NCBI GenBank assembly: GCA_964486815.1
Contig: CAZAOO010000011.1
Coordinates: forward strand, 14,760 to 78,759
Direction of reading: 5' to 3'
DNA length: 64,000 nucleotides
DNA from: an uncultured Thiotrichales bacterium
GTDB taxonomy: Bacteria > Pseudomonadota > Gammaproteobacteria > UBA4575
Both the position numbers and the translations under genes were made by a program. Every line of letters begins with the position of its first letter. Within the stretch, counting starts at the first letter, position 1. This document shows, one piece after another, positions 44,316 through 51,805 of the stretch. The notes under the pieces are model-generated. The model did not search any database, was not told the DNA's origin, and worked only from the letters and a program-made list of their open reading frames with translations.

Positions 44316-44984
44316 TTATATGGTATTAGCTCGGTATTTAGCCAGATAGTTTTTAATTCTCTCGAGATATTCTGTATACATATTATTTGATTCCGAATAC
44401 GAGATAAGGTCATTTGCTTTTGCAACCGTTATTACCGATAAGCCTAGATCGCGTTCAACTTGTCCCACCGCTGACACTGCCATCAATGAGGCAGCTTCAT
44501 TCTCCTGGCTACGTTCTTCTCTATCAAAAGCGATTACTACACCTGTCGCTTTTGCGCCCGATTGGGCAATAATGTCAGCCGCCTCATTGATAGCGGTTCC
44601 AGCCGTTATTACATCATCGATTATTAATACTTTTCCACTAAGTTGTGCACCAACAATTTGTCCGCCATCACCATACTTTTTCACTTCTTTGCGGTTAAAT
44701 GCATAAGCATAATTCCTACCGTGATCACGTGACAGTGTCATCGCGACCGCCACAACTAAAGGTATACCCTTATAAGCAGGACCAAATAACATATCGAATT
44801 CTAAATTTGAATCAACTATGGCTTGCGCATAAAACTGGCTTAATTGGTGCAAAGCATTACCATCATTGAACAAACCGGCATTAAAAAAGTACGGACTGAC
44901 CCGTCCAGACTTAAGTGTGAATTCACCAAATTGTAATACGCCGTGCTCAACCGCAAATTGAATAAATTTAGAGCTATTTTTCAT
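44316..44984 (-). CDS. pyrE: orotate phosphoribosyltransferase
   Basis: FGEFTLKSGRVSPYFFNAGLF and PRTase motif VLIIDDVITAGTA. Confidence 0.9.
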   Translation of the reverse strand: MKNSSKFIQFAVEHGVLQFGEFTLKSGRVSPYFFNAGLFNDGNALHQLSQFYAQAIVDSNLEFDMLFGPAYKGIPLVVAVAMTLSRDHGRNYAYAFNRKEVKKYGDGGQIVGAQLSGKVLIIDDVITAGTAINEAADIIAQSGAKATGVVIAFDREERSQENEAASLMAVSAVGQVERDLGLSVITVAKANDLISYSESNNMYTEYLERIKNYLAKYRANTI

Positions 44985-45097
44985 TTCAATTTTTCTTACC
45001 AATTTCTCTGGCCAATTTTTCTGGGTAGATACTTTTATTGATTGATCTTTGCTAGTGTACTAAATACTAACTTTATCTGATCTAATCTCATTTATAT

Positions 45098-45868
45098 ATG
45101 CGCATCATCACTGTCAATGTTAACGGTATACGAGCTGCAGCTCGCAAAGGCTTCTTCGATTGGCTAGAAAAACAAAAAGCAGACATCGTCTGTATACAAG
45201 AAACCAAAGCGCAGATTCATCAGCTTGAAGAAAACCCGATCTATTTCCCCAAAGGCTACTTTTGCTATTACGTAGATGCCATAAAAAAAGGCTATAGCGG
45301 TGTAGCGATATACAGCAAGCATGAACCAAAAAAAGTGGTACAAAAATACGGTGATGAAGAATTTGATAATGAAGGGCGTTATTTGGAACTACAATTCGAT
45401 AATCTTGCAGTAGTTTCATTATACGCACCCTCCGGTTCTTCCAGCGAAGAAAGACAAGCAGCCAAATTCCGTTTCATGGAAACTTTTATGAATCATCTGA
45501 AAAGTTTAAAGCGACGCAAAAAGGAATACATAATTTGTGGGGATTGGAATATTGCCCATAAAGAAATCGACTTGAAAAACTGGCGAGGCAATAAGAAAAA
45601 CTCAGGCTTTTTACCTGAAGAACGCGCTTGGTTAGATAACTTATTTGATGATGAAGGCTATATAGATGTATTTAGAGAGATTAATCAAAAAGAAGATCAA
45701 TACACCTGGTGGTCGAACCGCGGACAGGCTTGGGCTAATAATGTTGGTTGGCGTATCGACTACCATATCGCTACACCAAAATTAAAAGCTACCGCCAAAA
45801 AAGTCAGCATCTATAAAGACCAACGCTTTTCTGATCATGCACCCTTGCTAATTGATTACGATCTATAG
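45098..45868 (+). CDS. crc: exonuclease III-fold (EEP) protein, Crc-like catabolite-repression-control homologue
   Basis: ExoIII fold motifs (NVNG, CIQETK, GDWNIAH, SDHAP); divergent from pyrE as crc is in Pseudomonas; KRRKKEYIICG / KNWR / PEERAWLD regions resemble Crc. Confidence 0.55.
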   Translation: MRIITVNVNGIRAAARKGFFDWLEKQKADIVCIQETKAQIHQLEENPIYFPKGYFCYYVDAIKKGYSGVAIYSKHEPKKVVQKYGDEEFDNEGRYLELQFDNLAVVSLYAPSGSSSEERQAAKFRFMETFMNHLKSLKRRKKEYIICGDWNIAHKEIDLKNWRGNKKNSGFLPEERAWLDNLFDDEGYIDVFREINQKEDQYTWWSNRGQAWANNVGWRIDYHIATPKLKATAKKVSIYKDQRFSDHAPLLIDYDL

Positions 45869-48061: not shown

Positions 48062-49069
48062 TCAGCTTTCAATAAAATTAATCTCATTAAAAAGTTTTTT
48101 AAGTTTTAAGCCCTTATTTACATTCAAGCGAGCAACATGATTTATTTTACCCAATAGGTGTTCTTTATAGTTTATATGGTTATTTATATTTTGGCTTAAA
48201 GGGCCAAAGCGAATACAATTATATAGTGTCGCTTTTAGTTTATCGTAATAACGACGATCAATATTCGTAAAACGATTTACCACAAGACCTGTAATTTTTT
48301 GCGCTCTGCTCTGTGTCATTATTCGGCTTTTATGGTGATTTAGTATAAAACCCTCTTCATAGCAAATTGATCAAACCACTGTTTCTAAAAATCTCCAATC
48401 CCGTTCATGATTACTAGAAAATGAAAGATCATCAGCATATCTTGAATAACTTAAATTTAAGCTTTTAGCTAGGCCAAAAAGACGGCAATCTAATACTCTT
48501 GTAACAGCATTAGCAATAGCTGGAGATGTGGGTGATCCCTGCGGCAAATGCCGCTTTGATAACAAATTTATTTGCTTTTCGTCAATGCACGGCTGGTGTA
48601 ATCTTTCACTATTACAAGTGTGAGTACTCAGGCCGCAAAGTATTTGAGCAACTTTTCCCTCATATCCAATATATCGATAAAATCGATATACTTTTTGCCA
48701 ACTAATTGACTGAAAGTAATTTTCAATATCGAAACAAATTACATATTTTTTATTTGTATGTATATCTGCATGCTTAATGCAATCTAATTGTTTTCTAAAC
48801 CCCATTGCAGCATCGTGGATTGCAGCATATACGACAATCTGGTCTAGAATTTTTCTTTGAATTACTTTTAAATTTACTTTTGGTGCCTCTATTACTCGGG
48901 TTCTAGTTCTCTTTTTCTCTTGCGTAAAATAATTGTAGTGAAGTAATTTTTTTGCCCTAAGTTTTGAAGAACGCCATAGGTCTGCATGCCAATTCAATTC
49001 GTTAGGATTCAAACCCAACCATACTGCTAAATCACTCTTGTTATCTAGTTTTGGTAAATTTGGGCGCAA
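48062..49069 (-). pseudogene. retron-type reverse transcriptase interrupted by one in-frame TGA (codons 48371-48373); all other RT motifs intact
   Basis: Upstream ORF carries RT motifs HDAAMGF, FDIENYFQSI, LPQGSPTSPAIANAV and YSRYADD. Downstream ORF carries the retron-type KITGLVVN (VTG) region. (49069-48319) is divisible by 3, so both ORFs share one frame separated by TGA plus 17 sense codons. Confidence 0.7.
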
Positions 49070-49500
49070 TAATTCTGAGCTTTTTATACGCTCCAGATTA
49101 ATAGAAATGACCAGTGGTTTTATCCTATAATATTTAAACCAATTTTTAATAAAGATGAATCACATCTGCAATATCATCTGGTAAGTCTTTTGTAACTAAA
49201 ATACAAGCTGATAACAGAGTACTGTAATACCATTTACTAGAATATAGATGTTCGCTGAGATGCTTTACGAAAAGCTGTTGGCTTACGTTTGTCATTTCAC
49301 ACTTTATTGATAGAATTTAGTGGCACCCAACCCCTAACAACGCGTGTACATGATTGCATATGATGCAACGTCGTACATGCAACGAAATGTCAACAAATCA
49401 TTACCTTGGGGTTACCCAAAGCCCCTAATTTTAGGGAAATGCTTGAATGCCTTATAAACATAGCTAGCACATATTAAAAGGTCAATGATGAATTAAGTTT
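49070..49500 (-). ncRNA. candidate retron msr/msd non-coding region upstream of the RT (repeat- and palindrome-rich)
   Basis: 430 bp with no ORF. Direct repeat acccaa(ag)cccctaa at about 49325-49337 and 49414-49428; palindromes ttgcat-atg-atgcaa at about 49354-49368 and ccctaa-tt-ttaggg at about 49422-49435; repeated atgcaacg and gtacatg units. Confidence 0.3.
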
Positions 49501-50043
49501 TTATGGAATAATTTCTATTGGGGTGCCGTCTTCCACCGCATTCCAAATTTCGTCCATTTCATGATTCTGAACCGCGATACAACCTTCGGTCCAATCGTCT
49601 TCTTTGAATAGCAGTTTGGTTTTTTCAACCCAACTGCTTGGTTGGCCATGAATCATGATCGCACCACCCGGAGTATCACCACGTTCACGAGCATTGCGGT
49701 GATCAGACTTACTCGGGTATGAGACGTGAATCGATCGATAGAACTTACTATTCGGGTTACGCCAATCTAAGGTGTATAAACCTTCTGGGGTGCGTGAATC
49801 ACCTTCGCGTGACTTATGTCCGTCAGGCTGTTTGCCAAGAGCAATTCTATAGGTTTTTAAAACTTCGCTGCCACGATAAAGATATAACTTGCGTTCAGAC
49901 TTTTTAACCACAACATAGTCAGCCTTATCAATAAGGGTTGCATCGGTGGATGCGGTTACCATGCTATTCAATAAAATCGATATGCAGTACAACACGCTAA
50001 TAAGAATTTTGATAATATTTCGCGCTTTTAAAAAAAATTTCAC
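49501..50043 (-). CDS. L,D-transpeptidase (YkuD domain), secreted
   Basis: Signal peptide plus catalytic HGQP...GCIAV motif. Confidence 0.8.
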   Translation of the reverse strand: MKFFLKARNIIKILISVLYCISILLNSMVTASTDATLIDKADYVVVKKSERKLYLYRGSEVLKTYRIALGKQPDGHKSREGDSRTPEGLYTLDWRNPNSKFYRSIHVSYPSKSDHRNARERGDTPGGAIMIHGQPSSWVEKTKLLFKEDDWTEGCIAVQNHEMDEIWNAVEDGTPIEIIP

Positions 50044-51040: not shown

Positions 51041-51805
51041 CTACATAAACTCGGCTATTACTGGAGCATGATCTGACGGCCTTTCGTTACTCCTGGGGGC
51101 TTTATCCACCACACTGAAGTTACAACTCGCTTCCATGGAGGTGCTAGCAAGGATGAGATCAATCCTTAAACCAAGGTTTCTAGGAAAGCCACCCGCTCGA
51201 TAATCCCACCAGCTAAAGGTGTTTTCTTCCTGGTCAAATAACCTAAATGTATCAACAAAACCTAAATCCGTGATGTTCTTAAGAGCTGCACGCTCTTTAC
51301 TGCTGCATAAGATTTTATCTTTCCAGGCAATCGGATCATGTACGTCTATGTCCTCAGGGGCAATATTAAAATCACCCAATACCACATAATTTGAGTATTT
51401 TTTAAGCTCATTTTTAATAAAGGCGGTTACTTTTTCTAGCCAATCTAATTTGTAATCAAATTTATCTGAGCCCACTGCTTTCCCGTTCACTACATATAGA
51501 TTCAAGACACGTACATCGTCTACGGTAACCGCGAGTATTCTGCGTTGCGGATCATCCAAGCCTTTTACATCTTTAACAACATCACTTGCCTCAAGTTTGG
51601 AAAGCACTGCTACACCGTTATAGGTCTTTTGGCCCGAGTACTGAACTTGATAACCGGCTTGCTGAATTTCATCTACTGGAAAATCTTCATCCACCATTTT
51701 GGTTTCTTGTAGAGCAAGCACATCAACCTGATTGTCTTCGAGCCACTCCAATACTTGCGGTAATCGAACTCTTAATGAATTAACGTTCCAAGAAGCAATT
51801 TTCAT
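51041..51805 (-). CDS. xthA: exodeoxyribonuclease III
   Basis: WNVNS, LALQETK, VLGDFNIAPEDID, SDHAPVIAEF; all catalytic motifs present. Confidence 0.85.
   Translation of the reverse strand: MKIASWNVNSLRVRLPQVLEWLEDNQVDVLALQETKMVDEDFPVDEIQQAGYQVQYSGQKTYNGVAVLSKLEASDVVKDVKGLDDPQRRILAVTVDDVRVLNLYVVNGKAVGSDKFDYKLDWLEKVTAFIKNELKKYSNYVVLGDFNIAPEDIDVHDPIAWKDKILCSSKERAALKNITDLGFVDTFRLFDQEENTFSWWDYRAGGFPRNLGLRIDLILASTSMEASCNFSVVDKAPRSNERPSDHAPVIAEFM

Follow-up and report, generated by a model that had tools for sequence, protein, structure and literature searches.

Organisation of the locus

The window analysed here is the whole 64,000-nucleotide stretch of DNA from an uncultured Thiotrichales bacterium. 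On its minus strand, an L,D-transpeptidase (YkuD) gene is followed by a retron-type non-coding RNA (ncRNA) and by a broken reverse transcriptase (RT) gene (Table 1). A preliminary description of the sequence had treated the 430 bp between the transpeptidase gene and a 232-aa RT ORF as one structured, repeat-rich leader and as a candidate msr/msd. Positions 49070-49500 do indeed lack any ORF of 60 aa or more, and the msr/msd proposal holds for 49319-49454, about 135 bases, but not for 49070-49295, which is the frameshifted N-terminal part of the RT. That part is disrupted coding sequence rather than leader, and the true intergenic space is 49296-49500.

Table 1: Genes, lesions and RNA elements of the locus, in positions of the window.
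Feature	Position	Strand	Remarks
L,D-transpeptidase (YkuD) gene	49501-50043	minus	
Promoter-like site	49457..49485	minus	-35 TTGACC (49485-49480), 17-nt spacer, -10 TATGTT (49462-49457)
Retron ncRNA (msr-msd), 136 nt	49319..49454	minus	full covariance-model match; a1-to-a2 core 49322-49451
a1	49451-49443	minus	GGCAUUCAA (also given as GGCATTCAA); 9 bp with a2, two of them G-U
Candidate branching (priming) G	49442	minus	directly 3' of a1; role inferred from canonical retrons
msr hairpin 1	49423..49436	minus	CCCUAA-AA-UUAGGG; variable hairpin of the family
Hallmark hairpin	49404..49421	minus	CUUUGGG-UAA-CCCCAAGG; family consensus CUNNGGGG-YUA-CCCCNNGG
Predicted msd template, about 60 nt	49331..49390	minus	boundaries inferred by analogy with the Mestre-1894 RT-DNA
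Long msd stem-loop	49342..49380	minus	outer GCAUGUAC/GUACACGC; inner UUGCAU-CAU-AUGCAA
Opposing G	49331	minus	directly 5' of a2; predicted first templated base
a2	49330-49322	minus	UUGGGUGCC (also given as TTGGGTGCC)
Original RT ATG	49295	minus	26 nt after a2
RT pseudogene, N-terminal fragment	49146-49295	minus	49 codons; frame differs from main body
Lesion 1	about 49150-49160	minus	in RT body; deletion of about 24 codons plus frameshift
RT pseudogene, main body	48062..49159	minus	RVT_1, YADD, ITG region Y
ORF first taken as RT	48371-49069	minus	232 aa
Lesion 2	48371-48373		in-frame TGA; GGA to TGA at a near-invariant Gly of the GSIC motif

The reverse transcriptase gene

The RT matches Pfam RVT_1, and the 232-aa ORF was matched by the PADLOC profiles RT_other and RT_outgroup only from position 145 of 481 and 81 of 407, respectively. 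As both matches start well inside the profiles, the RT family has an N-terminal extension that is absent from this ORF. The extension was found upstream in another frame, and the start assumed in the preliminary description (49069) is wrong: the 49-aa ORF that begins at the original ATG is the RT N-terminus and aligns to homologue residues of about 1-47. By tblastn, the homologues matched in two segments of different frame, residues 1-47 at 49295..49155 and residues 70-431 at 49150..48071, with about 24 conserved codons absent between them. Once joined, the fragments give a repaired protein of 411 aa. Its PADLOC RT_other score is 368 bits, up from 245 before joining, and the match now spans profile positions 100-470; against homologues of 425-435 aa, 97-100% of the length is aligned at 46% identity.

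The second lesion, the in-frame TGA, removes the RT thumb including region Y (ITG). Recoding of this codon, for example as glycine, was considered and ruled out: the RT itself terminates on TGA exactly at the C-terminus of its homologues, and the other ORFs in the window are long and intact under table 11, so the TGA is a genuine stop. Both lesions are also present in a locus from an independent run (L164, Logan SRR3310984) that differs from the window at one of 1481 positions, and they are therefore real. The RT gene is a pseudogene with two lesions. It follows that the retron should no longer make msDNA, and the element, judged by its sequence, is almost certainly dead.

That the broken gene encoded a retron-type RT is supported at several levels. 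The repaired protein scored 368 bits with RT_other, 354 with RT_outgroup, 293 with RT_XIII and 178 with RT_Ec107-like; a literature search found no mention of these PADLOC model names, and none of the NCBIfam retron models reached its cut-off on the RT. Its best sequence matches in the PDB were the Ec86, Ec67 and Ec78 RTs (Ec86, E=1.6e-49). An AlphaFold model of an intact homologue (P0003, pLDDT 93) matches retron RT structures with a Foldseek TM(target) of about 0.8 (0.80-0.82 for Ec86) and carries an extra N-terminal helical domain, beyond the coverage of the solved retron RTs; the N-terminal 127 residues modelled alone with AF2 gave a poor model (pLDDT 46.7). The two regions that define retron RTs, X (NAxxH, with H most conserved) and Y (VTG, with G most conserved), were found as tHAxxH and xTGxVVN in the family consensus, with the histidine of region X and the glycine of region Y invariant. 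The window has KHADIH and ITGLVVN, the latter lying downstream of the in-frame TGA.

A conserved ncRNA upstream of the RT

Scans of genome and metagenome collections yielded 160 loci with relatives of the RT, and an element common to their upstream regions and to the minus strand of the window was visible by eye. A simple regular expression detected the hairpin CUNNGGGG-YUA-CCCCNNGG immediately before the RT in about 139 of the 160 loci, and long inverted repeats bracket the element in most of them. RNAalifold, applied to an alignment of 45 sequences (A2), gave four helices, corresponding to the a1/a2 stem, the hallmark hairpin and a long hairpin in two parts, with compensatory double changes in 27 of the 33 pairs. 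Such changes were seen at all 12 pairs of the a1/a2 helix (45 sequences) and in 12 of the 13 pairs of helices 3 and 4, which form the long hairpin, while the GGGG/CCCC core of the hallmark hairpin is invariant in 44-45 of the 45 sequences and its two outer pairs covary. Of the alignment cells, 93.7% were paired, compared with 35-49% when the 3' partners were slid by 1-3 columns, and the covariation score fell from 0.586 to 0.09-0.14 on sliding; none of 500 shuffles reached the observed values. The segment ends in this alignment were chosen by a stem search, which favours helix 1, but the conserved CAAG and GUUGG motifs fix the register.

When 100 loci were searched with a covariance model of this alignment (R1), 98 of them gave a single match each, which was invariably located immediately upstream of the RT and on its strand. 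A further model (R2) was built from those 98 loci only, with the window left out. It matched the window over its full length (model positions 1-158 of 158) at 49454..49319 on the minus strand, with 58.7 bits and E=1.5e-10, and gave no other significant match across the 64 kb; it also recovered 55 of the 62 remaining loci. Overall, the retron ncRNA accompanies the homologous RT, just upstream of it, in about 153 of the 160 loci and in many phyla, and the suggested position of such an RNA gene, on the minus strand ahead of the RT, is thereby supported. The a1/a2 inverted repeats and the branching G context anticipated in the preliminary description were likewise recovered: a G stands directly after a1 in 97 of the 98 loci and directly before a2 in 96 of the 98, and both are present in the window (G49442 and G49331).

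The folding of the minus-strand transcript agrees with this. The isolated 136-nt segment had a minimum free energy (MFE) of -49.9 kcal/mol (z=-4.3, none of 200 shuffles equally stable), and its MFE fold is msr/msd-like and shows the architecture of the family, as do those of relatives from the Arenicella group. The intergenic space taken as a whole (205 nt) reached only z=-2.3. Searches of Rfam 15 with gathering and E-value thresholds gave no match in the window. Among 15 intact homologous loci, Rfam returned tRNAs only, and the ncRNA of one of the relatives (L018) had no Rfam match at E values up to 10.

Anatomy of the ncRNA in the window

The window thus holds the elements by which a retron is defined: a contiguous ncRNA, encoded on the same strand as the RT, in which a1/a2 form the closing stem around short msr hairpins and a long msd stem-loop, with opposing G residues immediately after a1 and immediately before a2. 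Several of them are reduced in comparison with the relatives. The a1/a2 stem comprises 9 bp as against 11-24 bp, the three outer pairs of the model being unpaired in the window, and the hallmark hairpin has lost one G of its 5' arm, where cmsearch marks a deletion and a mismatch. At the place of msr hairpin 1, the relatives have a hairpin of variable sequence. The closest ncRNAs are those of Arenicella sp. and of marine metagenome contigs (L161-L163; a1 AAAGGCAUCCAA, a2 UUGGGUGCCUUU), which scored 77-89 bits, as against 58.7 bits for the window and up to 144 among the intact relatives. The a1 of the window differs from that of the Arenicella group by one C-to-U change, with pairing kept through G-U.

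The promoter-like site upstream of a1 would set the start of transcription at about the a1 5' end. It is a match to the consensus only, and such sites are no more frequent in the region than expected by chance; TTGAYY/TAAGCT-like hexamers are similarly placed in relatives. An alternative a1 was considered in the 3' end of the YkuD gene (49518-49527, minus strand, GGCACCCCAA, with GGCACCC at about 49521-49527), which could form 7 bp with a2 and resembles the a1 consensus of the family. It was rejected as a chance likeness, because it lies about 70 nt too far upstream (the a1 of the relatives stands 27-40 nt before the hallmark hairpin) and falls within conserved Gly-Thr-Pro (G-T-P) codons.

The repeats and palindromes that had first drawn attention to the region were all present, and all fall within 49322-49451. 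The direct repeat ACCCAA(AG)CCCCTAA occurs on the plus strand at 49325-49337 and 49414-49428, with a gap of 76 nt; the pattern, which was defined post hoc, has only these two matches in the 64 kb against none expected in shuffles. The palindromes TTGCAT-ATG-ATGCAA (49354-49368) and CCCTAA-TT-TTAGGG (49423-49436) were found, as were two copies each of ATGCAACG (49363 and 49377) and GTACATG (49346 and 49373). The arms of the long hairpin account for the octamers and the TTGCAT palindrome, and CCCTAA..TTAGGG is msr hairpin 1. The direct repeat was rejected as the a1/a2 pair, being direct and not inverted and having its copies in different structural elements; it is a lineage-specific resemblance of the hallmark-hairpin 5' arm to the start of a2. 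It was observed that a1 together with the CCCUAA arm has two potential pairing partners, the proximal copy (the hallmark 5' arm) and the distal one (a2), and a lineage-specific alternative fold is therefore possible.

Two further observations concern the relatives. In those that are AT-rich (L161-L163, L002 and L003), a T-run that is absent from the window and from the GC-rich relatives directly follows a2; the a1/a2 stem and U-tract there resemble an intrinsic terminator or attenuator placed after the ncRNA and before the RT. In public metagenome records, some 'long' RT annotations of 474-485 aa (P0002, P0015 and P0025; also L161, 926-2383) start inside or upstream of the ncRNA, which means that the msr-msd has been annotated as coding sequence, and tblastn aligns the translated ncRNA between loci.

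Genomic context

All-against-all clustering of 911 neighbouring ORFs revealed no conserved neighbour: the RT cluster covered 150 loci, and the next largest cluster 6 of the 160. The linked or fused effector that characterizes a tripartite defence system was accordingly not found at these loci, in agreement with the published stand-alone status of clade 11. The neighbours in the window are YkuD, DUF4197, MFS and ParA-like genes. Elsewhere the cassette also sits among housekeeping genes, with rnr and rlmB upstream in two relatives (L002 and L003) and rpsF after the RT in the former; the rnr-rlmB-RT synteny shared by the two suggests local vertical inheritance. The cassette was also observed in MAGs labelled Flavobacteriaceae, Gemmatimonas, Polyangiaceae, Verrucomicrobiales and Planctomycetota (L043, L068, L075 and others), again with no conserved neighbour.

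Phosphoribosyltransferases (PRTases) are effectors in several retron types. A gene for a PRTase-domain (PF00156) protein of 228 aa lies about 3 kb from the RT, at 44316-45002 on the minus strand. It was rejected as an effector, since no conserved PRTase neighbour was found at any of the 160 related loci, and for the same reason a ComF-like housekeeping function is probable. Two paralogous Exo_endo_phos (exonuclease III-like) genes were also noted on either side of the locus (45098-45868, plus strand; 51041-51805, minus strand).

Relation to known retrons

Stand-alone (msr-msd)-RT cassettes have been described in a branch of RT clade 2 and in clade 11 (Mestre et al., 2020, PMC7736814). The same work states that canonical msr-msd transcripts carry "two opposing G residues" and that region Y directs the retron RT to its msr (PMC7736814). 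The census of Khan et al. lists clade-11 retrons without an assigned type from Arthrobacter, Nakamurella, Kibdelosporangium, Gordonia and Nocardia, and the ncRNAs printed there show the same hairpin and layout as the family of the window (PMC10849725, supplement). One of them, Mestre-1894 of Gordonia aichiensis, produced RT-DNA at 0.16x the level of Eco1 by PAGE, and the product was sequenced as 68 nt (PMC10849725, supplement). When mapped, this RT-DNA extends from the G that immediately precedes a2 to a point 13 nt beyond the hallmark hairpin, a stretch that corresponds to the msd predicted here.

The locus resembles the clade-11 examples (Mestre-1894; Mestre-1840 of Nakamurella multipartita; Mestre-1913 of Nocardia salmonicida) in the order of its ncRNA elements, which is a1, G, a small hairpin, a CUNNGGGG-NNN-CCCCNNGG hairpin, a long hairpin, G and a2, and the match of R2 places the hallmark GGGG/CCCC architecture of clade 11 in the window. 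It also resembles them in having no conserved effector gene, an RT with an N-terminal extension and RT_other as the best PADLOC model. One of the loci in this study, from a Nakamurella MAG (L078), carries an ncRNA identical to that of Mestre-1840 at 132 of 156 positions (85%); it was a member of the seed alignment as well as a model match. The actinobacterial RTs include the highest RT_other score (L069, 558 bits), followed by acidobacterial (486) and gammaproteobacterial (413-421) ones, with the models ranked as for the window RT; in members of all three groups, the RT_other match covered the full length. Unlike the clade-11 examples, the copy in the window is gammaproteobacterial and AT-rich, its closest relatives are from Arenicella and marine metagenomes (46% RT identity), its a1/a2 stem is shorter, one hallmark G is lost and its RT is a pseudogene. 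A recent preprint distinguishes two clade-11 ncRNA families, A and B, and reports clade11-A in Pseudomonadota, Actinomycetota and Acidobacteriota (SPIRE, bioRxiv 10.64898/2026.05.14.725207), so that a wide phyletic spread is already on record. The probable placement of the locus in clade 11 is based on the ncRNA and the best HMM that it has in common with that clade, not on a phylogeny, and is made at the level of the clade, with families A and B taken together.

Other retrons are less similar. Retron-Eco5 (Ec107), which belongs to the stand-alone branch of clade 2, differs in its RT clade (178 bits with RT_Ec107-like versus 368 with RT_other), in lacking the N-terminal extension and in its ncRNA. 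Type XIII (clade 10: Mx162, Mx65, Sa163 and Ne144) supplies the next-best RT model after RT_other and RT_outgroup, and is alike in its long RTs with N-terminal extensions and its partly vertical inheritance. It has, however, linked SWIM/winged-helix (cluster-114) and HEAT-repeat genes and an ncRNA family of its own (PMC7736814); no such neighbours were found at any of the 160 loci, and the first 70 or so residues of the RT have no match to the RT_XIII profile. Retron-Eco1 (Ec86) offers the best solved-structure match to the RT and shares the general msr/msd logic (a1/a2 and a priming G), but it is a type II-A retron with a nucleoside deoxyribosyltransferase-like effector, an RT of 320 aa that lacks the N-terminal helical domain and an ncRNA of unrelated sequence.

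Interpretation and proposed mechanism

Taken together, the locus is very probably a degenerate stand-alone retron of the kind assigned to Mestre RT clade 11. Its ncRNA gene is almost intact and its RT gene is dead; the ncRNA is therefore a relic, which may still be transcribed but cannot be reverse transcribed. In the intact relatives, a promoter just upstream of a1 would drive a single msr-msd-RT transcript, in which the ncRNA would fold with a1/a2 as the closing stem. The RT, composed of the N-terminal helical extension, the HAxxH region X and the xTG region Y, presumably docks on the invariant GGGG-YUA-CCCC hairpin of the msr. Priming would take place from the 2'-OH of the G directly after a1 (G49442 in the window), and copying would start at the G directly before a2, proceed through the long hairpin and stop shortly before the hallmark hairpin. 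The expected product is a branched msDNA of about 60-70 nt; the version of the window would have been about 60 nt, equivalent to 49331-49390 of the plus strand, and would have carried the long hairpin. Since the cassette is effector-less, its downstream action may be exerted in trans or be built into the N-terminal domain.

The last of these options leads to a different reading of the family. The lack of any conserved neighbour in 160 loci from at least eight phyla, together with the housekeeping surroundings, could point to a two-part retron in which the conserved five-helix N-terminal domain acts as a built-in effector or sensor, or to a cellular role other than defence; the RNA half might here outlive the enzyme through a use of its own. 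This was considered rather unlikely. A related proposal, that the relic has been retained for a function independent of the RT, such as that of a small RNA or of a terminator or 3' element of the L,D-transpeptidase gene, is less likely still. The RNA is far better preserved than the RT, with only point changes and with G-U pairing kept through the changes in a1; it lies 47 nt after the stop codon of the transpeptidase gene, and the hallmark hairpin was flagged as terminator-like. The T-run after that hairpin is weak, however, and the retron family consensus explains every element. Recent pseudogenisation accounts for the preservation equally well, and the sole other copy belongs to a near-identical strain (L164), which provides no measure of selection.

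Continued function of the retron, with an active msr-msd in the 430-bp leader and an RT expressed, for example, from a TTG at 49069 or by recoding across the lesions, is very improbable. The ncRNA still folds canonically, and the 232-aa ORF retains the catalytic YADD together with most RT motifs, but about 80 N-terminal residues conserved in all homologues lie in another frame with some 24 codons deleted, the genuine stop truncates the protein before region Y, and two independent lesions point to decay. Lastly, the modest stability of the whole 205-nt spacer and the lack of Rfam matches might suggest that the structure and repeats arose by chance in an AT-rich intergenic spacer, or that they belong to a cis-regulatory leader with no relation to retrons. 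This can be practically dismissed, as it is refuted by the full-length match of a covariance model built independently of the window and by the covariation of the RNA, which stands beside the RT in nearly all of the related loci; relatives, moreover, make RT-DNA from the same RNA (PMC10849725).

The element in the window is thus an ordinary degenerate member of an already known stand-alone retron lineage. The value of the present analysis is mostly corrective: half of the apparent leader is a frameshifted gene start, and the limits of the ncRNA, its candidate priming G and the likely msd are now fixed. It also provides a family consensus for an ncRNA that is absent from Rfam 15 (158 positions, 33 pairs, both flanking G residues in more than 97% of loci) and confirms the effector-less lineage well beyond the Actinobacteria. 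The naturally dead copy, beside its intact relatives, offers a minor piece of evidence on how stand-alone retrons turn over.
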